NCBI GenBank assembly: GCA_965221595.1
Contig: OZ244900.1
Coordinates: 3,576,982-3,640,981, forward strand
Reading direction: 5' to 3'
DNA: 64,000 nt
Origin: Vicinamibacterales bacterium
GTDB taxonomy: Bacteria > Acidobacteriota > Vicinamibacteria > Vicinamibacterales > UBA8438
Made by a program: the position numbers and the translations under genes. Positions 2,454 to 59,373 of this stretch are shown here, piece after piece. The notes below the pieces were generated by a model. That model searched no databases. It was given only the letters and a program-made list of their open reading frames with translations, and was not told the origin of the DNA. How positions within the stretch are numbered: the first letter of the stretch is position 1; each line of letters opens with the position of its first letter.

Positions 2454-2619
2454 CGCAACTCCTCCAGTTTCGACAGGTTGCTTCGGCGATCGTGGTGTCC
2501 GCCGCTTCAATCAGACGGGGCTGCGCCCCGCACATCCGGGGTCATCATACCAGCCTGCGGCAAGAGGCCCCGCTGCAGTAAACGAGTGATACATCCGGCA
2601 AGGGAAGGCGCTGGATTAT

Positions 2620-2689
2620 TCCTCGTCACGCCTTGCCAGCCCGGCGCCGCGCCCGTCTCGGTGCGACGCAGGATTATCGCCGTGGGCTG
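2620..2689 (+). repeat. partial (3'-half) copy C of the dispersed ~165-bp intergenic repeat family
   Basis: cctcgtcacgccttgccagcccggcgccgcgcccgtctcggtgcgacgcagg...cgtgggctg aligns with the 3' halves of copies at 31557..31719 and 32468..32633. Confidence 0.6.
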
Positions 2690-2738: not shown

Positions 2739-4151
2739 ATGGCGATCTTCCGTCGCAGGCTGCTCCCCGGCCTGACGCTCGCGCTCGCCGCGGCCCTGCT
2801 GCTGTGCTTCGGCGCCGGGTCGGCCGCGGCGCAGCCGGACGATCACCCCCCCATCGAGCTGTTCCTCGCCGCGGCCGGCGGCAACCCGGGGCAGGTGCAG
2901 CGCGCCCTTGACCAGATCGACGCCGGATGGCGCCCCGGCTATGCCGGCATGGTCTGGGATCTGGCGCGGCTGCTGCGTCCCCCCAGCGCGCGGATGATGA
3001 GCTTCATCACCCTCGTGCGGTTCCTCGAAGAGCAGACCGGCGTACGGTTCGGCCAGGACATCACGCGGTGGAACGACTGGGTCTGGTCCCAGCCTTATGA
3101 ACCCCATCCCGACTACGGCTACCTCAAGGGGCAGTGGTACAGCCGGATCGACCCGCGCTTCGCCGCTTTCTTCCCGCGCGGCGTGGCGGCGGCGATACGG
3201 CTGGACGAGATCGAGTGGGGCGGCGTGGCCGTCAACGGGATCCCGCCGCTGGAGTATCCTGCCCGGCTTGACGCGAGCGCAGCGGACTACCTGGAGGACG
3301 ACCACGTCGTCTTCGGCATCGCGCTGAACGGTGAGGCACGGGCCTATCCGAAGCGGATCCTGGCGTGGCACGAGATGGCGCTCGACCGGCTCGCGGGCGT
3401 CGAGCTGACCATCGTCTACTGCACCCTGTGCGGCACGGTGATTCCGTTCGAGAGCGTGGCGGGGCGGCGGCGGCACACGTTCGGCACGAGCGGCCTGCTC
3501 TACCGGTCGAACAAGCTGATGTTTGACCACGAAACCCGCAGCCTCTGGAATACGTTCGAAGGCGTGCCGGTAATCGGCCCCCTGCTCGGTAGCGGCCTGC
3601 GCCTCACGCCCCACGCCGTCGTGACCACCACGTGGGGAGAGTGGCGGGCCCGGCACCCGGCTACGACCGTCCTGTCGCTCGAGACCGGGCACCGCCGCAA
3701 CTACGCCGAGGGCGCGGCCTACCGTACGTACTTCGGCACCGACGCGCTGATGTTCCAGGTCGCGCGGACCGACCGCCGCCTGCGGAACAAGGACGAGGTG
3801 CTGGTGCTGCGGCTCGCGGACCCCGCGTCCGGGCAACCCGCGCCACTGGCGATAGCCGCGGACTTTCTCGCCGAACGCCGGGTGTTCCGGCACCGCCACG
3901 CCGGCCGCGACCTGGTCGTGGTGACGAGCGAGGCGGGCGCCAACCGTGTCTACGACGCGCACGACGTCCGTTTCGTGCGGCACGGCGCGGCGGGCGCTGT
4001 GCTCGACGCGGCCGGCCGGGCCTGGCGCGTCACGGAGGCAGCGCTCGAGCTGGCTGCGGACCCGGAGGTGCGGCGGCTGCGGCTGCCGGCCCAGCGTGCG
4101 TTCTGGTTCGGCTGGTATGCACAGTTCCCCGAGACCGTGTTGATTCGATAG
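2739..4151 (+). CDS. secreted DUF3179-family protein
   Basis: 470-aa ORF with signal peptide MAIFRRRLLPGLTLALAAALLLCFGAGSAAAQ. It carries the family-typical YCTLCGT motif. The family name is from memory. Confidence 0.75.
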   Translation: MAIFRRRLLPGLTLALAAALLLCFGAGSAAAQPDDHPPIELFLAAAGGNPGQVQRALDQIDAGWRPGYAGMVWDLARLLRPPSARMMSFITLVRFLEEQTGVRFGQDITRWNDWVWSQPYEPHPDYGYLKGQWYSRIDPRFAAFFPRGVAAAIRLDEIEWGGVAVNGIPPLEYPARLDASAADYLEDDHVVFGIALNGEARAYPKRILAWHEMALDRLAGVELTIVYCTLCGTVIPFESVAGRRRHTFGTSGLLYRSNKLMFDHETRSLWNTFEGVPVIGPLLGSGLRLTPHAVVTTTWGEWRARHPATTVLSLETGHRRNYAEGAAYRTYFGTDALMFQVARTDRRLRNKDEVLVLRLADPASGQPAPLAIAADFLAERRVFRHRHAGRDLVVVTSEAGANRVYDAHDVRFVRHGAAGAVLDAAGRAWRVTEAALELAADPEVRRLRLPAQRAFWFGWYAQFPETVLIR

Positions 4152-4667: not shown

Positions 4668-5600
4668 ATGACTCGACATCTGCCGGCCGCAGCGTTCTTG
4701 TCGGCGGCGCTCGCCACGGCGGCGTCGGCCGACGCCCAGACGCCGCGCACGCCGTGGGGCGATCCGGATCTCCAGGGCACCTGGACGAACACCACCACCA
4801 CGCCGCTGGAGCGGCCGGCATCGCTCACGGGCCAAGCGACGCTCAGTGCCGAGGAGCGTGCCGCGATCGACGAGGAGAACGCACCCGGGATCGACGCCGC
4901 ACCCGGCGTCGGCGCCTACAACAACTTCTGGATGGAGCGCGGCTACGTGTACGAGCAGACGTCGCTGGTCGTGGATCCGCCGGACGGGCGGCTCCCGGGC
5001 GTGACCCGGTCCGCGCGGCAGCGACAGGAGGCGCTCCGCGCCGCACGGCGGTCGCCGTCGTACCCGGCCTCGTACGAGGAGCCGAGCCTGATGGAGCGCT
5101 GCATCACGCGCGGCGTGCCGGGCATCATGCTGCCCGGCAACTACAACCACAACTACAACATCCTGCAGACACCCGACTACGTCGTGATCTTCGCCGAGAT
5201 GATTCACGACACGCGCATCATCCCGATTGACGGGCGTCCGCACGTCGGCCAGGGGATTCGTCAGTGGCTCGGGGATTCGCGGGGCTACTGGGACGGCGAC
5301 ACGCTCGTCGTCGAGACGACCAACTTCACCGACAAGCTGTACGAGCGGCGCGGCTCGCTGATGGTCTGGGGCACCGGGCGGCACATGACCGTGACGGAGC
5401 GCTTCACTCGTGTCGGCGACACGCTCGACTATCGCTTCACACTGACCGACCCGACTACCTTCGAGCGCCCGTTCACGGCATCGATCCCGATGGTGCCCCT
5501 GGCCGAACCCATGTTCGAGTACGCCTGCCACGAGGGGAACTACGCGATGGCGAACATGCTGCGCGGCGCCCGCCAGGACGACCGGGCCGCGGCGAAGTGA
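4668..5600 (+). CDS. secreted conserved hypothetical protein, paralog 1 (TPRTPWGDPDLQG ... FEYACHEGNY family)
   Basis: ORF 4653..5600. The in-frame ATG at 4668 has a GAGGAGG SD 6 nt upstream and is followed by a signal peptide. It is clearly homologous to 8602..9654 (shared TPRTPWGDPDLQG, RCITRG.P, IIP.DGR, GDSRG.W.GDTLVVE.TNF, FEYACHEGNY). Confidence 0.8.
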   Translation: MTRHLPAAAFLSAALATAASADAQTPRTPWGDPDLQGTWTNTTTTPLERPASLTGQATLSAEERAAIDEENAPGIDAAPGVGAYNNFWMERGYVYEQTSLVVDPPDGRLPGVTRSARQRQEALRAARRSPSYPASYEEPSLMERCITRGVPGIMLPGNYNHNYNILQTPDYVVIFAEMIHDTRIIPIDGRPHVGQGIRQWLGDSRGYWDGDTLVVETTNFTDKLYERRGSLMVWGTGRHMTVTERFTRVGDTLDYRFTLTDPTTFERPFTASIPMVPLAEPMFEYACHEGNYAMANMLRGARQDDRAAAK

Positions 5601-8601: not shown

Positions 8602-9654
8602 ATGAAGAGGTCGACGATGAGAATGCACCAACACCTCGGCGTGCCCGGCGCTGCGCTCGTACTGGCGGCGCTCGTGCTGCTGTCCCCGGCCGGCGCCGCC
8701 GGACAGGAAGGCAACAGCGACACCTGGACGACGCCGCGCACACCCTGGGGCGATCCGGACCTGCAGGGCATCTGGACCACGGACTGGGAGCGCAGTGTGC
8801 CGTTCGAGCGCCCCGCCGAGTTCGGCGAGCGCGCCGAGCTGCGCGCCGAGGAAATCGCCGCGCGCACCGAGCGCGAGTCCGTCCTCCTGACCGACGACAA
8901 GGAGGATCGCACCCCCCGGCCGGGCGACCCGGAGGCCGGTCCGGAACACTGGTACGAATTCGGCGACCGGACCTCGCCGCGCACGTCGCTCATCGTCGAC
9001 CCGCCCGATGGACGCATCCCCCCGCTGACCCTCGGCGCGCAGACCCGCACCATCGACCCGAGCTCGCGGCTCGGTTTCGTCGGCGGCAGCATGGGCGACG
9101 GGCCGTTCGACGGGCCGGAGGACCTGCACCTCGCAGATCGCTGCATCACGCGCGGCCTGCCGCAGACCTGGTATCCGAGCGCCTACAACAACGGGTTCCA
9201 GATCGTCCAGAGTCCCGGCTACGTGGCACTGCTCTACGAGCGTCTCCACGAGCACCGGATCATTCCACTGGACGGCCGCGCGCCGCTCACGGCCGAGATC
9301 GGGCAGTGGTTCGGTGATTCGCGCGGCCGCTGGGAGGGCGACACGCTGGTCGTCGAGGTCACGAACTTCAGCGACCGGACGAACTTCCGTGGTGCGGGCG
9401 CGACGCGGCGCCTGATCGAGCGCTATACGCGCGTGGACGCCGAGACCGTACGCGTGGAGATTACGATCGACGATCCGACGACCTGGACACAGCCCTGGAC
9501 GACGGTCGTCAACGGCATCCACGATCCCGACTACTGGCAGGTGTTCGAGTACGCCTGCCATGAGGGCAACTACGGGATGCGGAACATCCTGAGCGCGGCC
9601 CGCAATCTCGAGCGGGCGGCTGCGGAGCGGGCCGCGGCGGAGGCGGGCAGGTAG
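8602..9654 (+). CDS. secreted conserved hypothetical protein, paralog 2 of 4668..5600
   Basis: 350-aa ORF. Alternative in-frame starts exist at 8617 and 8623 (GAAGAGG SD at 8604-8610). It has a signal peptide and the same motif set as paralog 1. Confidence 0.8.
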   Translation: MKRSTMRMHQHLGVPGAALVLAALVLLSPAGAAGQEGNSDTWTTPRTPWGDPDLQGIWTTDWERSVPFERPAEFGERAELRAEEIAARTERESVLLTDDKEDRTPRPGDPEAGPEHWYEFGDRTSPRTSLIVDPPDGRIPPLTLGAQTRTIDPSSRLGFVGGSMGDGPFDGPEDLHLADRCITRGLPQTWYPSAYNNGFQIVQSPGYVALLYERLHEHRIIPLDGRAPLTAEIGQWFGDSRGRWEGDTLVVEVTNFSDRTNFRGAGATRRLIERYTRVDAETVRVEITIDDPTTWTQPWTTVVNGIHDPDYWQVFEYACHEGNYGMRNILSAARNLERAAAERAAAEAGR

Positions 9655-30418: not shown

Positions 30419-31440
30419 TCCGCGCACTCTTCGACGGCATCGGGCGTGTCCTGGGCGCACCTGTGCTCGTGGCCGGCGTCTACCTGGTGACCCTGCTTCT
30501 GGCGGCGCCGCTCGCCCTGGCCCTGCATGACGCCATCGCAGCGCACCTGGGGGCGAGTGTGGCGGCCGACCAGGTGGCCGGCGGCGTGCACTGGGAGTGG
30601 TGGGAGGAGTTCCAGGCGCAGGCGCGGGGGTTCGAGCGCACCTTCACGCCGTCGATCATCGGCTTCGGCGCGGTCCTGACCAACCTGAGCGCGTTCGTCG
30701 ACGGCGCCGTGCCCTCCGGCGGACTGGCGGTCGCCGTGGCCTTCTACCTGGCGGCCTGGACCTTCCTCGCCGGCGGCATCCTGGATCGCCTGGCGCGCCG
30801 CCGGCGGCTGGGGGCCGCCGCGTTCTTCGCCGCCTGCGGCACGTACTTCTTCCGCTTCCTGCGCCTGGCCGTCGTTGCGGGGCTGGTCTATTGGCTGCTG
30901 TTCGATCGGTTCCACACCTGGCTGTTCGAGGATCTCTACCGGGACGTGACGCGCGACGTCACCGTGGAGCGCACCGCATTCGTCATCCGGATCGCGGGCT
31001 ACGCCGTGTTCGGCGCACTCGTGCTGCCTGTCAACTTGCTGTTCGACTACGCAAAGATTCGGGCCGTGGTCGAAGACCGCCGCAGCATGCTCGGGGCCCT
31101 GCTGGCAGCCGGCCGCTTCGTGCGCCGGCGCCCATTTTCGACCGGCGGGCTGTACGTGCTCAACGCCGGGCTGTTCGGGCTTCTGCTGGCGGGGTACGCC
31201 GCCGTCGATCCCGGTGTCGGCGCGCCGGACGCGACGTCGCAGTGGACGGCGCTGCTCGTCGGTCAGGCGTACGTGCTGGCACGGGTGGCGACCAAGCTGG
31301 TCTTTCTCGCGTCGCAGACCGCGTACTTCCAGGGCCAGCTCGCCCGCCCCGGCTACGTGGCCGCGCCGGACCCCGCACCACCCGCCGCGGAGACCCCCGC
31401 CGCCACCGCGCACGACGTCGGCCAGCCCCCTGCTTCCTGA
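30415..31440 (+). CDS. polytopic membrane protein of unknown function
   Basis: Part of ORF 30199..31440. The probable TTG start at 30415 overlaps the peptidase stop. Multiple hydrophobic helices are present. The start codon is uncertain. Confidence 0.55.
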   Translation: MIRALFDGIGRVLGAPVLVAGVYLVTLLLAAPLALALHDAIAAHLGASVAADQVAGGVHWEWWEEFQAQARGFERTFTPSIIGFGAVLTNLSAFVDGAVPSGGLAVAVAFYLAAWTFLAGGILDRLARRRRLGAAAFFAACGTYFFRFLRLAVVAGLVYWLLFDRFHTWLFEDLYRDVTRDVTVERTAFVIRIAGYAVFGALVLPVNLLFDYAKIRAVVEDRRSMLGALLAAGRFVRRRPFSTGGLYVLNAGLFGLLLAGYAAVDPGVGAPDATSQWTALLVGQAYVLARVATKLVFLASQTAYFQGQLARPGYVAAPDPAPPAAETPAATAHDVGQPPAS

Positions 31441-31556
31441 GCTATTGCGCGGGCGGTTCGGCGCTTGGACCGGCGGCGGACCGTTGTGGTACAAGGGAAG
31501 CATGGTCGCGAATCGCGCGGGTCGTTCTTGTCCGGTGGAGGTCACCATGCATGTGC

Positions 31557-31719
31557 CTGGCAACCCGTGGCAACAGTCCCCGCTAAATTCGATGGGCGCT
31601 GCATCCCGCCTGACTGCGTTGCTCCTCGGTCGAAAAGACCCAATAGGCTCCGTCGTCGCGCCTGGGCAGGCGGGCGCCTCGCCCGTCTCGGTGCAACGCA
31701 GGGTTTCACCACGGGCTGC
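31557..31719 (+). repeat. full-length copy A of the dispersed ~165-bp intergenic repeat
   Basis: ctggcaacccgtggcaacagtccccgc...gggcgctgcatcccgcctgactgcgttgctc...cgcccgtctcggtgcaacgcagggtttcaccacgggctgc. By eye it is about 80% identical to copy B. Confidence 0.85.
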
Positions 31720-32452
31720 CAGCGTTCGAGCTGCGTTGGTTGCGTGCGTGCTGTCGAGTCTGTCGGCCGTGGTGCCGCCGGCGGCGGCGGGCCAGACCGC
31801 TCAGGAACTGGAACGCGACGTGCGGGAAGCCTTCCGCGGCGAGCGCGACCTGCGCCGCATCAAGGTGACGGTCGCAGGCAGCGAGGCCACGCTGACGGGT
31901 CTGGTCGAGTCCTTCTGGGTCAAGCACCAGGCGATCGAGCGGGCCCTCGACGTCGACGGCATCGAGACCGTCGCCAGCGAGCTGGAACTGCCCGAGCCCG
32001 AGGACGACAACGACCTGGCGCAGGAAGTCGCCAGGGTCGTCCAGCGCTATCCGCACTACACCATCTGGGACTTCATCAACGGCCGGGTACAGAACGGCAA
32101 CGTCCGGCTCGCCGGGTGGGTGACGCCCGACCGCGACAAGAGCGGCGACCTGTTCGAGCGTGTGGCGAAGATCGAGGGCGTGCAGGACGTCCAGAGCACC
32201 ATCGAGACCCTGTCGACGTCGCAGGGCGACCGTCGGCTGCGCAATTCCATTCTGCGCCAGCTTGCCCGCAACGTGCACTTCGAGCGGCTCGCGCGGATGC
32301 CGAACCCGCCGTTCCACATCGTCATCAACAACGGCATCGTGCTGCTCGTGGGCTACGTGCAGGGCCAGGCCGAGCTGATCGAGATGCAGCGCATCGTGGG
32401 CCAGACGCAGGGCGTGCTGCGCGTCGAGAACCAGCTCCAGACCATCCGCTGA
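31691..32452 (+). CDS. BON-domain protein (three BON repeats), secreted
   Basis: Part of ORF 31214..32452. Repeated units contain ...V.V.V.G..V.L.G.V....... The start is uncertain. GTG 31691 gives signal MQRRVSPRAASVRAALVACVLSSLSAVVPPAAAGQ but lies inside repeat copy A; TTG 31736 is an alternative. Confidence 0.7.
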   Translation: MQRRVSPRAASVRAALVACVLSSLSAVVPPAAAGQTAQELERDVREAFRGERDLRRIKVTVAGSEATLTGLVESFWVKHQAIERALDVDGIETVASELELPEPEDDNDLAQEVARVVQRYPHYTIWDFINGRVQNGNVRLAGWVTPDRDKSGDLFERVAKIEGVQDVQSTIETLSTSQGDRRLRNSILRQLARNVHFERLARMPNPPFHIVINNGIVLLVGYVQGQAELIEMQRIVGQTQGVLRVENQLQTIR

Positions 32453-32467
32453 CCGTCGCCCTCACCG

Positions 32468-32633
32468 TTCAGGGCCGGTGGCACAAGTCCCCGCTGCATG
32501 CGACGGGCGCTGCATCCCGCCTGACTGCGTTGCTCGCCGGTCGAATAGGCCCAATCGGCTCCCTCGTCGCGCCTTGCCAGGCCGGCGCCGCGCCCGTCTC
32601 GGTGCGACGCCGGCTTTCACCAGCAGCTGCTAG
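32468..32633 (+). repeat. full-length copy B of the dispersed ~165-bp intergenic repeat
   Basis: ggccggtggcacaagtccccgc...gggcgctgcatcccgcctgactgcgttgctc...cgcccgtctcggtgcgacgccggctttcaccagcagctgctag. Confidence 0.85.
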
Positions 32634-32667
32634 TGATATTGCGTCTCAGTTACAGAAACGCTAGGAT
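32634..32667 (+). promoter_or_regulatory. bfd promoter candidate with an overlapping TGATAT-tgcg-TCTCA box (Fur-box-like)
   Basis: The box spans 32634-32648. The promoter is TTGCGT (32639-44), 17 nt, TAGGAT (32662-67). ATG 32677 follows without an SD. Confidence 0.4.
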
Positions 32668-32676
32668 CTGTTTCCC

Positions 32677-32928
32677 ATGCAGTTGGCGGTCGAGCCCCGG
32701 GTCACTCAGCAGCCGGCGCCTCGCGAAGGCCGGTACGTCTGCGCCTGCCTGCGGATCACCGAGCGCGAGCTGCTGGGTACGCTGGCGAGCACGAACGTGC
32801 GCACCCTGCAGGACCTGCGGCGCACCATCGGCGCCGGCGACGGCTGCACGGCGTGCCACCCCGCGCTGCAGCGCTACCTGGACACGGCTGGTCAGCCGTC
32901 GTGTCCGCCCATCTGCTCCGCCAGGTAG
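32677..32928 (+). CDS. bfd: Bfd-like [2Fe-2S]-binding domain protein (bacterioferritin-associated ferredoxin)
   Basis: 83 aa with the Cys pattern C-x-C ... C-x2-C (YVCACLRITEREL...GDGCTACHP). Confidence 0.8.
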   Translation: MQLAVEPRVTQQPAPREGRYVCACLRITERELLGTLASTNVRTLQDLRRTIGAGDGCTACHPALQRYLDTAGQPSCPPICSAR

Positions 32929-49284: not shown

Positions 49285-49377
49285 GCCGCAAACGGCGCAG
49301 CGGGCTGCAGCGGACGGTTCCGCCCTGTCGGCAGCGGTCGCAGGGTCCGGCGCCTCCTCCGTCGGAGGGCGGGCCGC

Positions 49378-50171
49378 ATGAGGCTGCTCCACCTGTGTCT
49401 CCTCATCCGGCAGGAGAATCCGCAGCACTGGGCGCGGGTTGCCAAGTGGATGCGACACCTGTTCGACATCGACCCGCAAAAAAAAACCGGTCCAGAACGG
49501 AGCGCCTCCAGCTCAGCGACTTCACGGAGGAGTGCTTTCGCCGGCTTGCCGCACGGCTCGATCACGCGATGCTGTTTCGCAAGAGAGAACTCTACCGCCT
49601 CGTCGACTACTTGTCGGATGACGAGATTCCAGAGGAGGTAGGCACCAAACTCGACCTGCTCGATGACTTGTCCACGAAGGCGCAGCACGAAGGGGAAGAA
49701 CACGAGATGACGGGCGAGGCACCTAACGGCGGCGGAACGAAACGCCGATGGTTGGAAGACGAACTCGAAGTGCTACTCGACGAAGAGGGCGGACAGAGCG
49801 TCGACGAGCAGGCGTTCGAGAATGCCAGGAAAGCGGCCCAGGACGTCGGGGCCGCGGTGAGGACACTCGAGGACGCCAACAGACGATCCGACCAGAAGAT
49901 CGCCGACCTCTGCGGGGCTGTTTTCGTATACGGAGCCCTGTTTGCGGGAGTGCAGCTAAACCACGACATGAGGAGGGAGCTGCTAAAGAGGCGAGGCCGA
50001 CCGGGCGATGACGAATGCGCACAGCGACTAGAAGCATTCCACGTCCGCCACGTGGAAATGCTGGCGGACGAGATCGAGGATCAGACGAAGGTCGACCGCA
50101 TGAGGAAGCTTGTTCGGGGTACCCTCGACAAAGCCAGGGCGGTGAAACTTCTCGGACAAGTGTGGAAGTAA
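49378..50171 (+). CDS. acidic hypothetical protein whose frame changes by -1 at an A9 tract (49478-49486)
   Basis: ATG 49378 has a GGAGGG SD 8 nt upstream and encodes MRLLHLCLLIRQENPQHWARVAKWMRHLFDIDPQKK. Protein-like sequence then continues only in the -1 frame (NRSRTERLQLSDFTEECFRRLAARLDHAMLFRKRELYRLVDYLSDDEIPEE... to stop 50171). No domain is recognised. Confidence 0.45.
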
Positions 50172-50254
50172 CAGTCCGACGGGCGCACCGCTATACATCA
50201 AGGGCAAGCGTACAGGTCGGAATCCTCCCGATCCGGCAGCCACCTGGACTGTCT

Positions 50255-50400
50255 GGGCGCCGCGGTGCCCCTTGCTGCGCCGGTGTTGTCCGTCAGGCGT
50301 CGCCGGTGCTGACGTTCGCGCGGCGGCGCGGTCACGGCGCCCGACGAGGAACCTATCTACCGAGCCTTCGAGCTTTGCCATGCGATCGCGGTTCTCGGTG
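50255..50400 (-). pseudogene. decayed 3' fragment of a paralog of the coiled-coil gene 51631..52113
   Basis: It translates to ENRDRMAKLEGSVDRFLVGRRDRAAA, compared with ENRERMANLEGALEGFLAGRRDRDAA at the 3' end of 51631..52113. The downstream non-coding flank is also about 70% similar. The stop codon is lost and there is no 5' part. Confidence 0.55.
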
Positions 50401-50659
50401 AGTCCACCACGCGGCAACGGCCACCGTGCGCGCATTTTGCCGAGATTTCGGCCTTGGCGAGCCCCTTAACTTTGGGCGATGGCGTCTTGGTTCAGGTTAC
50501 GATACGCGCGGTTTGGTCGCCTCTCACAGTTGTCCCATGTCCGCTCATGGAGCTTCGTCGTCTTCGGCGATGCGTCTTCAGCGACTTGCTGAGCATGCTT
50601 GGTAGCGGCAACACGAAAGGGTGTGTCGAAGGCGACCTGCTTCCAGGTCGAACGAAGCA

Positions 50660-51508
50660 CTAGTCGCGCCCACGGACGAACGCGGCGATCTCCGCGGCAA
50701 CGCGTGCAGGCGCATCCAGGGGCAGGAAGACACTCGCTCCAGCCACCTCGACCAAGCGTGCGTCCGGGAACTCGCGGGTGAGATCCTGCGCGAGCTGGAG
50801 CGGAAACAACTTGTCTTCATTTCCCCAGACCAACAGCACCGGCGCCCGGAAGCCGGCGAACTTGCGGGTGGCCGCGAGCATCATCTCGGGCTTGCAGCCG
50901 GCCAGGAAGTCGAGGGACGCCCGCCGCACGGCCGCATTCCGTGCGAATGGCCCCACAATCCGTTCCTTCAGGTCGCCTGGCACCGGATTCGAGCAGGTCG
51001 GGCCGAAGAAAGCCGCATAGTCGTTGCGCGACATGAGACGCCCGAGCAGAGGACTGGCAAGCCAGGGCGCCAGGCGCGCGAAGTTCTGCATGGGCTGAAA
51101 GGCCTTGGGCGGAAACTGGTCGAACACGTCCGAGTTGGTCAGCACGAGTCGGCCTACCCGCGCCACGGCGGGATGCTCCGAGGTGATAAGGAGCTGGCAG
51201 ATGCCGCCGCCGGAATCGTTTCCCACGAGCGTGACGTCCTGGAGGTCCAGGACTTCCATGAACTCGCAGACCATGTCGACGACACCCCGCGGCGAGAGAT
51301 CAGCATCGCGCGGGAACGCCTCCGGCTGCGAGCCCAGGGGCCAGTCGGGCGCGATGCCGCGGAAGCCGCCGGGCAGCGCATCGATGACCCCTTTCCACAG
51401 GTGGTGATTGGCCCAGATGCCGTGAACGAACAGCAGGACGTCACCTGAACCCGTGTCCAGATAGTGGAGCCGCCCGCCCGATTTCAGAGTATGAACCTTC
51501 TGTTCCAT
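50660..51508 (-). CDS. alpha/beta-hydrolase fold protein
   Basis: Part of ORF 50660..51532. ATG 51508 has an AGGGGGA SD. Features are LLFVHGIWANHHLW (HG oxyanion region) and the nucleophile elbow VGNDSGG. Confidence 0.85.
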   Translation of the reverse strand: MEQKVHTLKSGGRLHYLDTGSGDVLLFVHGIWANHHLWKGVIDALPGGFRGIAPDWPLGSQPEAFPRDADLSPRGVVDMVCEFMEVLDLQDVTLVGNDSGGGICQLLITSEHPAVARVGRLVLTNSDVFDQFPPKAFQPMQNFARLAPWLASPLLGRLMSRNDYAAFFGPTCSNPVPGDLKERIVGPFARNAAVRRASLDFLAGCKPEMMLAATRKFAGFRAPVLLVWGNEDKLFPLQLAQDLTREFPDARLVEVAGASVFLPLDAPARVAAEIAAFVRGRD

Positions 51509-51630
51509 GCGTCCCCCTGCCCGCGTCCCCAACGCCGCAGCCCGTGGGCCAAGGTCGGCGGAAGGGTCCCGGCGTGGCGGCGCCCCTTGCGGTGCCCGTC
51601 CTTGATGTCCGGGTCAGCCGGTACCGGCGT

Positions 51631-52113
51631 TCAAGCGGCGTCGCGGTCGCGGCGCCCGGCCAGGAACCCTTCGAGCGCGCCCTCGAGGTTCGCCATGCGC
51701 TCGCGGTTCTCCGCGAGCTCCTGGTGCACGCGGTCGAAGCGTTGGTGCATTTCGCTCGTCAAGTGCTCGAACCGGTTGTCGAATCGGCGGTTCGTTTCGT
51801 CGATCTGCCTATTGGTCTCATCGATCCGCCTGTTGGTCTCGTCGATCCGGGCTCCCAAGTCGGCCTTCAGCTCCTTCATCTGCGCGCCGTTGGCCTCGAA
51901 CGGCTTGCCGATGTTCATCGTCAGGATGCGCAGCATCAGGCCCATCACCCCGACGATGCCGATTCCGGTTCCGACGAGGGATATGACGATCGCCGCTGTC
52001 TCGGTCACGGTGGCCCCACGATACCACCTCCCCGTCAGGAGCGTCCGACTGATCCGTGGTCTGACGGCGTGGGTCTCGGTTGTCGGGATCAGGCCGGTCC
52101 GGCTTCCGGTCAT
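51631..52113 (-). CDS. single-TM protein with a heptad-repeat coiled coil (IDETNRR x3)
   Basis: 160-aa ORF. The TM segment is AAIVISLVGTGIGIVGVMGLMLRIL. Three 21-bp tandem repeats at 51791-51853 encode IDETNRR/IDETNRQ/IDETNRR. The C-terminal motif is MANLEGALEGFLAGRR. The true start may be GTG 52008, because the first 35 codons overlap a duplicated non-coding segment. Confidence 0.55.
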   Translation of the reverse strand: MTGSRTGLIPTTETHAVRPRISRTLLTGRWYRGATVTETAAIVISLVGTGIGIVGVMGLMLRILTMNIGKPFEANGAQMKELKADLGARIDETNRRIDETNRQIDETNRRFDNRFEHLTSEMHQRFDRVHQELAENRERMANLEGALEGFLAGRRDRDAA

Positions 52114-52117
52114 AGCC

Positions 52118-52147
52118 TTGACGCGGCATCCCTCGCGGCGACATTAT
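52118..52147 (+). promoter_or_regulatory. promoter P1 (duplicated cassette copy 1)
   Basis: TTGACG (52118-23), 18 nt, CATTAT (52142-47). It is nearly identical to P2 at 53502-53531. Confidence 0.5.
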
Positions 52148-52175
52148 CGACTCGCAGGGAGGTGCGGCGACCGGC

Positions 52176-52272
52176 ATGACCGGAGACGACGCGCTGAACC
52201 GTCCCGTCACGCAGGCGCAGCTTCGCCGTCGTCGGCGGCATCGTCGCGCTGAACGCCGTCGATCTGCTCTGA
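52176..52272 (+). pseudogene. internally deleted, frameshifted copy of the small TM-protein gene 53559..53753
   Basis: MTGDDALNRPVTQAQ matches MAGDDVMNSPVTQAQ. The 3' end gtcgtcggcggcatcgtcgcgctgaacgccgtcgatctgctctga matches the 3' end of 53559..53753 (VVGGIVALNAVDLL*) but in another frame. About 100 nt of the middle are missing. Confidence 0.55.
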
Positions 52273-52281
52273 GGGTTGTAT

Positions 52282-53439
52282 ATGGATATTCTCGGACTCA
52301 AGCCGGAGGTTCCGAAGGACCCGATCGGCCAGGTGCTCACCCGGGATGGACACCCGACGCTCGCGGTGATCGATCTCGGCAGGGAGGTGAGCGAGGCACT
52401 ACGCGACTCGTGGCCGGCAACGCGCCCGTTCGAGTCGGGCGGCGCGATCGACAGCAAGTGGCTGCTGCCGATTCTCGGTGTCGGCGGCACGGCAGTTTCG
52501 TCCCTGTCTGCGGGGAACGTCTTCCTGGCGACAGCGAATCCCGCGACGCTGATGACCATCGGCGCCGGGGTGGGGTCGGCGGTCATGGGACCGAAGGGGA
52601 TCATCGCGGCCGCTCCGTTCGTTGCGGCCAGCCAAGCGCTCCTGCCGGTCGTGGCGCCGATCATGCTCTTCATGACCGTGTCGTCGTTGACGACCGGCGC
52701 GCGGCTCGAACGCATGCACCGAGCGATCGGGGCGCTCTCCGAAGACTTGCAGCGCGTGCGCCATCTGATGGAAGTCGAGGACTACGCTCGGCTCGTGAGT
52801 GCGGCCGAGCATCTCGACGAGGTCGGCTCGGCGTTCGAGCACGCTCAGCGGTTCACGGACGCCATGAAGAATGAACTCGCCCTGGCCAGGAGCGAAGTCA
52901 AGCGACTGCGGCGCAAGTTCGGACACCTTGCCGTGAGGGAGCTCCGGTCCGAGCAGGATGCCAGGTTGGCCGTGTCCGACATCAATCTGTTCGTGCTGTC
53001 GAGCCTCATGGATCTCCGGGCGGATGCACTCCGTCTCCAGTTGACGCTCCAGGACAATCCGGACTTCGTGGAGCACCGCGGGGCCGCCCTGCTCACGAAA
53101 GTCGAAGAGTGCGCCGACACCTTCAGAAAGATGCTCGAGCGCAATCCGGTGGCGGCATTCCGGGACGAGCAGCAGCGGAAGCTGGATGAGCTCGGCCGGT
53201 TCCGGCGAGGGCTTGGAAGCGGTCGGCCCCTTCGGAAGACCATCGGGGCGGTCAACACCGTCCTGAACAAGGACTTCGCCCCTGTACGGTCGCGCCTGGA
53301 GCGGTGGATCAGCGAGTTCGAGGCGTCCGGCCCGGCGGCGCAGGAAGAGTCCATCGTGATCTACCAGGAGCGGGACGACGGGCGCGCCTTGAGGGCCCAC
53401 CACACCCGCGACCTGCGCCTGGTGCAGGTCGCGGCCTGA
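52282..53439 (+). CDS. orphan 386-aa protein: Gly/Ala-rich hydrophobic N-terminal half plus a long alpha-helical C-terminal half
   Basis: ORF 52276..53439. ATG 52282 has a GAGGG SD 6 nt upstream. Codon usage is protein-like. No motif is recognised. Confidence 0.6.
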   Translation: MDILGLKPEVPKDPIGQVLTRDGHPTLAVIDLGREVSEALRDSWPATRPFESGGAIDSKWLLPILGVGGTAVSSLSAGNVFLATANPATLMTIGAGVGSAVMGPKGIIAAAPFVAASQALLPVVAPIMLFMTVSSLTTGARLERMHRAIGALSEDLQRVRHLMEVEDYARLVSAAEHLDEVGSAFEHAQRFTDAMKNELALARSEVKRLRRKFGHLAVRELRSEQDARLAVSDINLFVLSSLMDLRADALRLQLTLQDNPDFVEHRGAALLTKVEECADTFRKMLERNPVAAFRDEQQRKLDELGRFRRGLGSGRPLRKTIGAVNTVLNKDFAPVRSRLERWISEFEASGPAAQEESIVIYQERDDGRALRAHHTRDLRLVQVAA

Positions 53440-53501
53440 GTACTGGCTGCGGTTCGCGGTGCTGCAGATCGGCCCCGGTCGGCCCGCTGCCGGTCTCTGC
53501 C

Positions 53502-53531
53502 TTGACGCGGCATCCTCCGCGGCGACATGAT
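53502..53531 (+). promoter_or_regulatory. promoter P2 (duplicated cassette copy 2)
   Basis: TTGACG (53502-07), 18 nt, CATGAT (53526-31). Confidence 0.5.
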
Positions 53532-53558
53532 CGATTCGGAGCAGGCACGGTGACCGGC

Positions 53559-53753
53559 ATGGCTGGAGACGACGTCATGAACAGTCCCGTCACGCAGGCG
53601 CAGTTCGAGGCCTTCCTCGCCGAGTTCCGCCAGCTCAGGGAGAACTCGGTCACGAAGCACGACGTGTTTCAGGTCGTGCTTCTCGTGCAGACCGCCTACT
53701 TCGCGGTCGTCGTCGGCACCATCGTCGTGCTGAATGTCGTCGACCTGCTCTGA
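53559..53753 (+). CDS. 64-aa protein with a C-terminal TM helix (holin/XhlA-like topology)
   Basis: MAGDDVMNSPVTQAQFEAFLAEFRQLRENSVTKHDVFQVVLLVQTAYFAVVVGTIVVLNVVDLL. It is the last part of ORF 53304..53753 and lies 28 nt downstream of P2. Confidence 0.5.
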   Translation: MAGDDVMNSPVTQAQFEAFLAEFRQLRENSVTKHDVFQVVLLVQTAYFAVVVGTIVVLNVVDLL

Positions 53754-53874
53754 GCGTCCCCCGGGGTCGGCGCACCCGCACCAGCGTCATTCACAGGAAT
53801 CGAAATCCTGATGGCTGCGAATCAACTCGCGCAGGCCCGGGAAGGCTGGCCACTGATCGCTGCGACGCAGACTC

Positions 53875-55355: not shown

Positions 55356-55422
55356 CTGGCAGCCCGTGGCAATAGTCCCCGCCCATCGCGGTGCGACGCG
55401 GGGTTTCACCAAGGGCTGCTAG
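55356..55422 (+). repeat. short copy D of the dispersed repeat (both ends retained, about 95-nt centre missing)
   Basis: ctggcagcccgtggcaatagtccccgc-ccat-cgcggtgcgacgcggggtttcaccaagggctgctag. Confidence 0.7.
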
Positions 55423-55461
55423 AGTCTAAACTACCCGGCCATTCGCAGGGGCGGGCGGCGT

Positions 55462-55501: not shown

Positions 55502-55570
55502 ATGCGGTGCCCAGACCACCATTCGGATCATCATCGGCCGCGACATGGCGGGCACAGGTGGTGCGCGTGA
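55502..55570 (+). CDS. hisL: candidate his-operon leader peptide (22 codons, 6 His)
   Basis: MRCPDHHSDHHRPRHGGHRWCA*. It starts 10 nt after the -10 box and ends 40 nt before an intrinsic terminator that precedes hisI. Confidence 0.45.
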   Translation: MRCPDHHSDHHRPRHGGHRWCA

Positions 55571-55609
55571 GCTGAGGCGAGAGAATCGGGATTGTTGGCG
55601 CACCACACG

Positions 55610-55640
55610 GCCTCGCCGAACATCCGGCGAGGCTTTTTTT
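55610..55640 (+). terminator. rho-independent terminator/attenuator upstream of hisI
   Basis: GCCTCGCC-gaacatcc-GGCGAGGC (8 bp) is followed by TTTTTTT. It lies 21 nt before ATG 55662. Confidence 0.75.
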
Positions 55641-58149: not shown

Positions 58150-58745
58150 GCGCGCCGGCCCGCCGCGCCCGGATCGACCGCCGCACCCGCGAGACACGCA
58201 TCGCCCTGCAGCTCGACCTCGACGGCCGGGGAGAATTCGAGGTGCGCACCGGCATCCGCTTCCTGGATCACATGCTGGAGCTGGTGGCGCGGCACGGCGT
58301 CATGGACTTGACGCTGGACGCGCAGGGCGACCTCGACGTCGATCAGCACCACACCGTCGAGGACGTCGGCATTGCGCTCGGCGAGGCGGTGAGCCGGGCG
58401 CTGGGGTCGCGGCGCGGGATCAACCGCGCGGGCTACTTCGTCATGCCGATGGACGAGACGCTCGGCGTGGCCGCCCTCGATCTCGGCGGGCGCGTGCACA
58501 CGGTCGTGGACTTGCGCGTGCGCGCGCGGCTCGTGGGCGACCTGCAGACCGAGCTGGTGACCGACTTCTTCGAGGGGTTCGCCCAGGGCGCGCGGGCCAA
58601 CGTGCACCTCAAGGTGCTCTACGGCCGCTCCAGCCACCATAAGGTGGAGGCGGTCTTCAAGGCGTTCGCGCGCGCACTGCGCGTGGCCTGCTCGCGCGAC
58701 CGCCAGCTCGGCGAGAGCCTGCCCAGCACGAAGGGACTGCTGTGA
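58146..58745 (+). CDS. hisB: imidazoleglycerol-phosphate dehydratase
   Basis: [15 protein letters not shown]...GIRFLDHML...[12 protein letters not shown]...SSHHKVEA. The start overlaps the hisD stop as ATGA. Confidence 0.9.
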
Positions 58746-58755
58746 GATCGGCACG

Positions 58756-59373
58756 ATGATTGCCTTGATCGACTACGGCGCCGGGAACCTGACGTCGGTC
58801 AGGAAGGCCCTGCGGCATCTCGGCGCGCCGTTCGCGACGCCTGGCTCGCCGGCCGAGCTGGCCGGCCTGTCGGCGGTCATCGTGCCAGGCGTCGGGAACT
58901 TCGAAGCCACGGCGGCCCTCGCACCGGACTGGCGCGCGGCCATCGCCGATGCCGTAGGACACGGCACCCCGTTGCTGGGCATCTGCCTGGGCCTGCAGTG
59001 GCTCTTCGAAGGCAGCGAGGAGGCCCCGCGCGTGGGCGGACTGGCGACGATGCCCGGCACCTGCGCGCTGCTTCGCGGCGACGACTACGACGGCTTCGGC
59101 CGGTTCAAGGTGCCGCACGTAGGCTGGAACAGCCTGCACCGCACGCGTGACTCGTGGCTGCTCGCGGGCGTGCGCGAGGGCGATCAGGTCTACTTCACGC
59201 ACTCGTACGCCGCGCCGGTCACCGCCGATTGCGTGGCCTCGACGCGCTACGGCGTCGATTTCGCCAGCGCCGTCCAGCGGGACCACGTCGCGGGCGTTCA
59301 GTTCCACCCCGAGAAGTCGGGCGCGGTCGGCCTGCGCATCCTCGGCAATTTCCTCGCGCGGGTGCCGGCGTGA
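58756..59373 (+). CDS. hisH: imidazole glycerol phosphate synthase, glutamine amidotransferase subunit
   Basis: 205 aa: MIALIDYGAGNLTSVRKAL...GICLGLQ...HVGWN...FHPEKS. Confidence 0.9.
   Translation: MIALIDYGAGNLTSVRKALRHLGAPFATPGSPAELAGLSAVIVPGVGNFEATAALAPDWRAAIADAVGHGTPLLGICLGLQWLFEGSEEAPRVGGLATMPGTCALLRGDDYDGFGRFKVPHVGWNSLHRTRDSWLLAGVREGDQVYFTHSYAAPVTADCVASTRYGVDFASAVQRDHVAGVQFHPEKSGAVGLRILGNFLARVPA

Follow-up and report, generated by a model that had tools for sequence, protein, structure and literature searches.

The repeat that occurs four times in the window (the whole stretch of DNA that was analysed, 64,000 nucleotides of a Vicinamibacterales genome) is best explained as a non-autonomous DNA transposon, or MITE, of a family specific to Vicinamibacterales and probably moved in trans by a DDE transposase that selects its targets as IS5 does; we put the probability of this reading at about 0.82. 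The CTAG-targeting MITEs of Vicinamibacterales are a new family of a known kind of element. They are small and non-coding, carry terminal inverted repeats, are bordered by a target duplication of fixed length and show insertion polymorphism. A MITE had been one of several options offered by the sequence-only reading of this DNA, and the inverted termini, 4-bp duplication, empty sites, deletion derivatives and many dispersed copies described below bear it out. In the proposed mechanism, a DDE transposase whose target choice resembles that of IS5 would act in trans. The element inserts at CTAG with duplication of 4 bp of the target, and it is predicted to fold end to end into one hairpin that compensatory substitutions preserve. 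A step of this life cycle probably needs one strand folded as single-stranded DNA or RNA, since G·U and tandem G·A pairs are stable on one strand only.

A covariance model was built from 60 family members and run on the window with filters off. Exactly four copies were found, so the repeat and its count, first noticed in the letters of the 64-kb sequence, are real. The copies (A to D) and the features next to them are as follows.

2551–2689, plus strand: copy C, old, degenerate and near full-length (139 nt; 65 bits over the whole model), between divergent genes and upstream of one for a DUF3179 protein
31537–31541, plus strand: ribosome-binding site (RBS) GGAGG of the BON gene, conserved in relatives; the ATG is at 31547–31549
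31547–32452, plus strand: BON-domain gene (301 aa in the source-genome annotation), into which copy A is inserted in frame
31557–31560 and 31719–31722, plus strand: flanks of copy A, CTGG and CCAG
31561–31718, plus strand: copy A, full-length (158 nt; covariance-model score 142.6 bits)
32472–32629, plus strand: copy B, full-length with decayed outer termini (116 bits), located after the BON stop codon and before the bfd promoter
32630–32633: CTAG, the 3' flank of copy B, whose 5' flank is unrecognisable
32639–32667, plus strand: promoter-like hexamers of bfd (TTGCGT-17 nt-TAGGAT), starting 5 nt after the CTAG of copy B
55356–55359 and 55419–55422: flanks of copy D, CTGG and CTAG
55360–55418, plus strand: copy D, short form (59 nt; 35 bits)

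In the same search the next unrelated site in the window came at E = 0.07, and weak echoes of copies D and A on the opposite strand at E = 0.06–0.07. A repeat search of the window paired 31564–31722 with 32475–32633 at 85% identity over 159 nt, slightly above the ~80% over ~165 nt first estimated for copies A and B, and located a 3' block common to all four copies (2647, 31677, 32588 and 55377). BLAST with a canonical family member covered copy A at 31557–31722 (85%), copy B at 32474–32633 (84%), the two ends of copy C at 2548–2596 and 2621–2689, and copy D at 55377–55423. Copy C had been taken for a 3' half; by BLAST and by the covariance model it is 139 nt long and keeps both termini; ~19 nt are deleted internally, and no target duplication can be recognised. 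Copy D, correctly described as two termini with the centre missing, is a short form that retains the basal stem only, which is equivalent to the terminal inverted repeats. The four window copies are independent insertions of different ages. Copies A and B have the same orientation and a spacing of 911 nt, and the earlier description of the pair as direct repeats flanking the BON gene is misleading: because the closest relatives have neither copy and A falls inside the coding sequence of BON, they are independent insertions and form no composite unit.

The family was scanned for in a collection of species-representative genomes using a 22-nt pattern (20 specified bases) from the conserved 3' block. 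This check for copies elsewhere, suggested when the repeat was first noticed, gave at least 117 matches, in about 39 MAGs among the matches listed; for a 20-base pattern, a family of this size is far above chance. Among the matches listed, hosts are almost all Vicinamibacterales/Vicinamibacteria or unclassified Acidobacteria MAGs, and up to 14 loci come from a single chromosome. In 8-kb loci around the listed matches, BLAST identified 166 copies or fragments, of which 99 retain the two ends. The canonical (modal) unit is 158 nt, with 59 unique copies of 155–160 nt. Length variants range from 59 to 239 nt and include short forms (59–89 nt) and long forms (170–239 nt), the latter having additional small hairpin modules apically. 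Copies from different species-level genomes are on average 84% identical, and some pairs at non-orthologous sites in such genomes reach 96–99%. The family is order-wide, and its sequence conservation exceeds what would be expected for a neutrally decaying MITE. No match to the element was found in PLSDB plasmids or GenBank phages by BLAST, or in IMG/VR viral contigs by pattern scan. The literature searched yielded no description of this Vicinamibacterales repeat family, and a term search of the MITE survey PMC11602168 gave none.

In the orientation of the window, the unit starts with [C/G]AGCCCGTGG and ends with CCACGGGCT[G/C]; the longer terminal consensus is [C/G]AGCCCGTGG(T/C)(G/A)AAA... 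and ...TTTCACCACGGGCT[G/C]. The termini pair over ~20 positions (helix 1, 98% of cells paired), and the first and last bases of the unit co-vary, being CG in 40 copies and GC in 18. Target-site duplications, which had been proposed as a check, were found and are 4 bp long with the consensus CTAG. Identical 4-mers border 38 of 96 copies on both sides. In 25 of the 96 both flanks are CTAG, and 13 copies have identical flanks other than CTAG (TGGA, TGAA, CTGA, CTAT, TTAG twice, ATAG, CTGG three times, CCAG twice and CGCG). When 3' flanks were permuted 5000 times, identical non-CTAG flanks numbered 2.0 on average and 8 at most, versus the 13 observed. Target variants are mostly CTGG, CCAG, TTAG, ATAG and CTAA. 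Adjacent elements can share one CTAG (locus L071).

Other sources of such flanks were considered. An IS630-type duplication of TA within CTAG is less parsimonious than 4 bp for TGGA, TGAA, CTGA, CTAT, TTAG and ATAG, and a 2-bp TA model would need ad hoc terminal base changes in most of the non-CTAG cases. An IS200/IS605-type element was rejected, as the flanks co-vary in the manner of true duplications. Integron attC sites were also rejected, since the copies form no arrays and combine random orientation with a conserved sequence.

Mobility was assessed by comparing element-masked loci with each other, which yielded syntenic pairs, several of them involving the window. A copy common to both genomes was found at 0 of 9 testable orthologous sites, and four empty sites could be read at the nucleotide level. 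At copy D, the window has GGCCCTGG-CTGG[D]CTAG-AGTCTAAAC and the locus L036, with flanks ~90% identical to the window, has GGCC-CTAG-TCTAAACC, with a single CTAG and no element. L036 in turn has a copy of its own (158 nt) between two his genes, reading CTCTAG[element]CTAGGGACC; this intergenic site is empty both in the window (58745–58756) and in L043 (CTGTAGGGATT), where CTAC stands in place of the CTAG[element]CTAG of L036. The insertion that reads ATAG[element]ATAG in L026 corresponds to a single ACAG in L039, and L119 has a single CCAG at the site of copy A, where the window has CTGG[A]CCAG. Judged from these alignments, the insertions are younger than the divergence of genomes whose flanking DNA is 72–90% identical.

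IS5 duplicates 4 bp at C-T/A-A-G/A (PMC11677980), and the CTAG-centred 4-bp duplication fits this target pattern. Like the IS5-derived MITEs of bacteria, the Vicinamibacterales element is small and non-coding, has inverted termini and a CTAG-centred 4-bp duplication, and exists as dispersed copies with deletion derivatives and presence/absence polymorphism. Unlike them, it co-varies as a hairpin throughout, beyond its ends; its termini are also dissimilar to those of E. coli IS5 (GGAAGGTGCGAA), and neither an IS5-family nor any other transposase gene with matching ends was found in ~1 Mb of loci. Within this ~1 Mb of 8-kb loci, no pair of termini 0.8–2.5 kb apart encloses a transposase gene, and the pairs at that spacing are chance partners enclosing ordinary genes. 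A tblastn search of the same ~1 Mb with E. coli IS5 InsH returned nothing below E = 1.5. Two further leads were discarded: solo ends in L067 adjoin a secreted-repeat protein and no transposase, and an apparent array of termini in L049 proved to be a tandem repeat of 129 nt that encodes protein and has no relation to the element.

Copy A had been placed upstream of the BON gene. It lies inside the frame, just after the conserved RBS and ATG. The insertion is in frame because 158 + 4 = 162 nt, or 54 codons, and it follows BON codon 3–4; in the window the ATG is followed by 7 nt, CTGG, the element (158 nt) and CCAG, after which the signal-peptide sequence continues. The gene product, which contains a Pfam BON domain (E = 2.4e-21), is 301 aa long (P0001) versus 246–247 aa in five relatives, and in the protein alignment the 54-residue insert directly follows Met1. 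BON proteins of the closest relatives (L119, L120 and L122) are 86–90% identical, and in these three the leader ...GGTGGAGGTCACC-ATG-AAAGCG... runs uninterrupted into BON. The empty site in L119 at the position of copy A reads 'ATGAAAGCGC CCAG GGTTCGAG'. A conserved peptide in the open reading frame track had been called spurious; reading frames through the element are incidental and it has no coding capacity of its own, but in the source genome the peptide is annotated as protein (P0001). Among ~100 copies, no other convincing in-frame insertion into a coding sequence was found.

Gene context was determined with our own GC3-based gene caller, which recovers the genes expected in the window; the numbers of intergenic copies and of stop-codon overlaps are approximate. 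By these calls, 153 of 166 copies (about 92%) lie outside genes. CTAG occurs at 0.37 per kb in the loci versus 2.87 expected from base composition (~8-fold depletion in these GC-rich genomes), and 226 of 369 CTAGs are outside called genes, a count in which the CTAGs bordering the elements themselves are included. For 28 of 96 copies (29%), an adjacent gene ends with a TAG stop codon supplied by one of the duplicated CTAGs. Copies often abut the 3' end of a gene. Intergenic placement probably results from CTAG targeting together with selection against gene disruption: a rare target tetranucleotide that often overlaps a stop codon, combined with such selection, would be sufficient to produce the intergenic habit.

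Orientation with respect to neighbouring genes is close to even: the two co-directional senses account for 25 and 26 copies, divergent gene pairs enclose 19 and convergent pairs 24. It is 14:14 relative to the abutting upstream gene when the duplicated CTAG supplies the stop codon, 23:23 when the 3' end of the upstream gene is within 30 nt of the copy, and 17:10 (p = 0.25) for gene starts within 60 nt downstream. All four window copies had been described as plus-oriented and immediately upstream of plus-strand genes. Their plus orientation stands, but copy A is inside BON and the pattern does not extend to the family; because there is no family-wide orientation bias towards neighbouring genes, the four-of-four arrangement is a coincidence.

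The promoters downstream of the copies were also compared between relatives. The bfd hexamers are not part of the element, and the same sequence precedes bfd in L120, where the site of copy B reads CAATAG|TGATATTGCG with no element. L120 has a Kelch-repeat gene between BON and bfd. Copy D lies ~50 nt upstream of the his-leader promoter, and the same promoter is present in L036 without the element. Since they occur in relatives that lack the element, these putative promoters are host sequences, and none of the four window copies carries the promoter of its downstream gene.

The whole unit is one long imperfect palindrome, or hairpin. Internal complementary segments had been pointed out in copy A; the pairing is real but not merely local, for the palindrome spans the entire unit. 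RNAalifold was run on 60 copies in the orientation opposite to that of the window and gave a structure of 52 pairs at -73.8 kcal/mol, with changes on both sides in 23 of the 52, so the fold analysis that had been recommended does detect covariation. Paired cells amount to 97.4%, versus 90.6% in shuffled alignments and 31–41% when partners were slid, and doubly changed cells number 173 versus 47 in shuffles; 0 of 500 shuffles reach any of the pairing measures, although relatedness among copies inflates this shuffle test. Covariation is found in the apical helices as well as at the termini, for example at pairs 35-132 (CG 23, GC 22, AU 8), 63-102 (CG 40, UA 14) and 67-99 (CG 42, GC 15).

The two strands are not equivalent. 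On the better-folding strand, 266 cells within predicted pairs are G·U and 17 are A·C; note that these represent ~9 G·U columns and 2–3 A·C columns, so that independent events are few. Symmetric internal loops contain invariant tandem G·A/A·G columns, which are C·T/T·C on the other strand. The minus strand, opposite to the window orientation, is the more stable in 89 of 96 copies using RNA parameters and in 87 of 96 using DNA parameters, and it is favoured also in variants with different apical modules. For copy A, the two strands fold at -91.6 kcal/mol (z = -5.5) and -79.7 kcal/mol (z = -4.1). Given covariation from end to end and strand-specific non-canonical pairs, neither of which cut-and-paste DDE transposition requires, there is therefore a constraint beyond transposase binding at the ends.

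How far this constraint should change the reading of the family was weighed against the other explanations. The repeat could be a mobile structured nucleic acid, in which a rod-like hairpin of ~160 nt, an RNA or a single-stranded DNA intermediate made from the opposite strand, has its fold under selection. Covariation beyond the termini, the 266 G·U versus 17 A·C cells with invariant tandem sheared G·A columns on one strand, the better folding of the opposite strand in 89 of 96 copies, different apical modules included, and the unusually high order-wide sequence conservation all speak for it. Against it, a promoter and terminator scan of 31400–32750 found nothing inside copies A or B, Rfam 15 gave nothing at gathering score over the window and no match on the element at E <= 10 (31450–32750), copies show no orientation preference relative to host transcripts, the strand asymmetry comes from few independent events (~9 G·U versus 2–3 A·C columns), and palindromic arms can be homogenised at the DNA level. 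A scan for tRNA and tmRNA likewise found none. On balance we regard this explanation as improbable; it would add to MITE-type transposition and is compatible with it. The suggestion of a structured RNA made from the letters thus holds in part: the conserved, covarying hairpin is there, but the favoured strand is the opposite one, no promoter or terminator was seen inside copies A or B, and copies have no preferred orientation to host transcripts. A role as a host-level RNA is unlikely given the random orientation of copies relative to host transcription, and the hairpin constraint more probably lies in the propagation of the element itself. Its source could be a single-stranded fold recognised in transposition, an element-level transcript or DNA-level homogenisation of the arms. 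A related proposal, that the element is more than a passive MITE and that its propagation or retention depends on the ~160-nt rod of one strand, with its conserved tandem G·A and G·U pairs, is speculative and improbable.

A long hairpin of two arms would also suit a REP/REPIN-type element whose mobility depends on a RAYT (Y1/HUH) transposase. REPs and REPINs form hairpins from two inverted arms, show compensatory changes and are intergenic, often just after genes, and the Vicinamibacterales element resembles them in its two-arm hairpin maintained by compensatory changes, its strand-specific fold, its nearly always intergenic location and its frequent position directly 3' of genes. It differs in having clear 4-bp direct target duplications with matching empty sites, which HUH transposition does not produce, in ending with CAGCCC/GAGCCC and no GTAG/CGTC tag, and in a unit of 158 nt that is far longer than a doublet of 20–40-nt REPs, so we consider this origin very unlikely. 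Still less credible is a cis-regulatory 5'-UTR RNA or mobile promoter cassette for BON, bfd, the his operon and DUF3179. The shared direction of the four window copies, each preceding a plus-strand gene, had suggested such a cassette, but family-wide orientation is random (25/26/19/24, and 17:10 near gene starts), 24 of 94 copies lie between convergent genes, relatives keep the bfd and his-leader promoters and the BON RBS and ATG at orthologous loci without the element, no copy is common to both genomes at any of the 9 orthologous sites compared, and the neighbouring genes are functionally unrelated; for the family, the cis-regulatory reading is already refuted. The least plausible account is that A and B arose only by local segmental duplication around BON. 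Their 911-nt spacing in direct orientation fits it, and it was rejected because there are hundreds of copies, in about 39 genomes among the matches listed, and because identity between A and B is only 85% and the closest relatives lack each of them at its own site.

The MITE interpretation can further be set beside two groups of palindromic repeats. ERIC/IRU elements of enterobacteria are imperfect palindromes of about 127 bp, intergenic and conserved between species, with short and long variants. The Vicinamibacterales family is alike in its similar size, full-length imperfect palindrome, intergenic location, cross-species conservation and short and long variants, and differs in host phylum and sequence and in its clear 4-bp duplications and recent insertions. 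Rickettsia palindromic elements (RPEs) are inserted in frame in protein genes. Copy A is likewise palindromic and in frame (54 codons) and leaves the reading frame open, but it is a single such case among ~100 copies of a family that is otherwise intergenic.

The Vicinamibacterales are abundant soil Acidobacteria, for the most part uncultured, and nearly all that is known of them comes from MAGs. In such genomes, a palindromic repeat of 158 nt present in many copies breaks short-read assemblies, leads to spurious or extended gene calls (here, 54 residues of the annotated BON protein are encoded by the element) and can be mistaken for a regulatory motif. Once recognised, the family can be masked, used for strain typing and as an insertion-polymorphism marker, and followed in a search for the active transposase. 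The in-frame insertion ahead of the BON signal peptide is a natural experiment on BON export. If the element did depend on the rod of one strand, there would be either a single-stranded intermediate that still makes 4-bp duplications or a mobile gene for a hairpin RNA, and either would explain the order-wide sequence conservation. The end-to-end covariation and strand-specific fold raise a modest question, namely what constrains palindromic MITEs.

The bfd gene (plus strand) and the bacterioferritin gene (minus strand) are convergent, their 3' ends overlapping by 37 nt at window positions 32892–32928, and the same overlapping arrangement is found in L118, L120 and L121, three of the 8-kb loci drawn from related genomes. 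In relatives, a Kelch-repeat gene of 342 amino acids lies between BON and bfd (positions 3408–4436 of L120/L121, versus window 32453–32676). The window carries no Kelch-repeat gene there, and the junction is filled by copy B of the 158-nt element, the 5' end of which is decayed. The absence of the Kelch-repeat gene from the window could be due to a deletion adjoining copy B.

An island of atypical composition was observed at window 49300–53800, with lower-G+C stretches visible in the raw sequence. Codon-position GC bias is weaker in this island, and three of its genes have GC3 values of 0.82–0.85. Two internal repeat pairs were found in it:

50251–50402 and 51566–51717: first pair, 74% identity
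52099–52220 and 53483–53603: second pair, 83–85% identity

Just after each member of the second pair comes a small ORF that begins MTGDD/MAGDD...NRPVTQAQ. Four ORFs of the island were tested for a transposase domain, and none had one. The block is lineage-specific, because the syntenic locus L043 passes from the equivalent of window 47930 to that of 55516 with only ∼1.4 kb between them.

Window 55502–55632 is a histidine-operon leader. It comprises an ORF of 22 codons (MRCPDHHSDHHRPRHGGHRWCA) with six His, preceded by a promoter-like TTGACA-18-TAAGGT and followed, directly before hisI, by a GC-rich hairpin and T-run (ggcctcgccgaacatccggcgaggcttttttt). This leader is ordinary attenuation, unconnected with copy D, the short form of the element nearby.

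Paralogous coding segments, 80–90% identical and ∼4 kb apart, lie at window 4739–5597 and 8730–9627 (families D9, D10 and D15 of the repeat search); a tandem gene-pair duplication is therefore indicated. Between loci, L049 (1–3108) and L107 (4294–7122) share ∼2.8 kb at 96–97% identity, far above the 65–90% of other syntenic pairs. L049 and L107 belong to separate species-level genomes, OZ244838 and OZ253664 respectively. The shared block could reflect recent horizontal transfer.

Over the whole set of loci, ∼1 Mb in total, CTAG is ∼8-fold under-represented, at 0.37 per kb versus 2.87 expected. Where the CTAG flanks of the element vary, CTGG and CCAG are the most frequent forms; very-short-patch-type repair or CTAG avoidance would be expected to yield these two.

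In long variants of the element (196–239 nt), the apical region holds further small perfect hairpins, for example GCGGATCGGCAGGTTTCCATGCCGATCCGC and GGGGCAACCCTTGTGGTTGCCCC. They occur as follows:

L003, L012 and L020 (apical part): long copies with nested apical hairpins
L012, L016 and more of the loci from OZ253576 and OZ244838: nested small hairpins

These hairpins may represent a second, smaller palindromic repeat family that inserts into the 158-nt element family.
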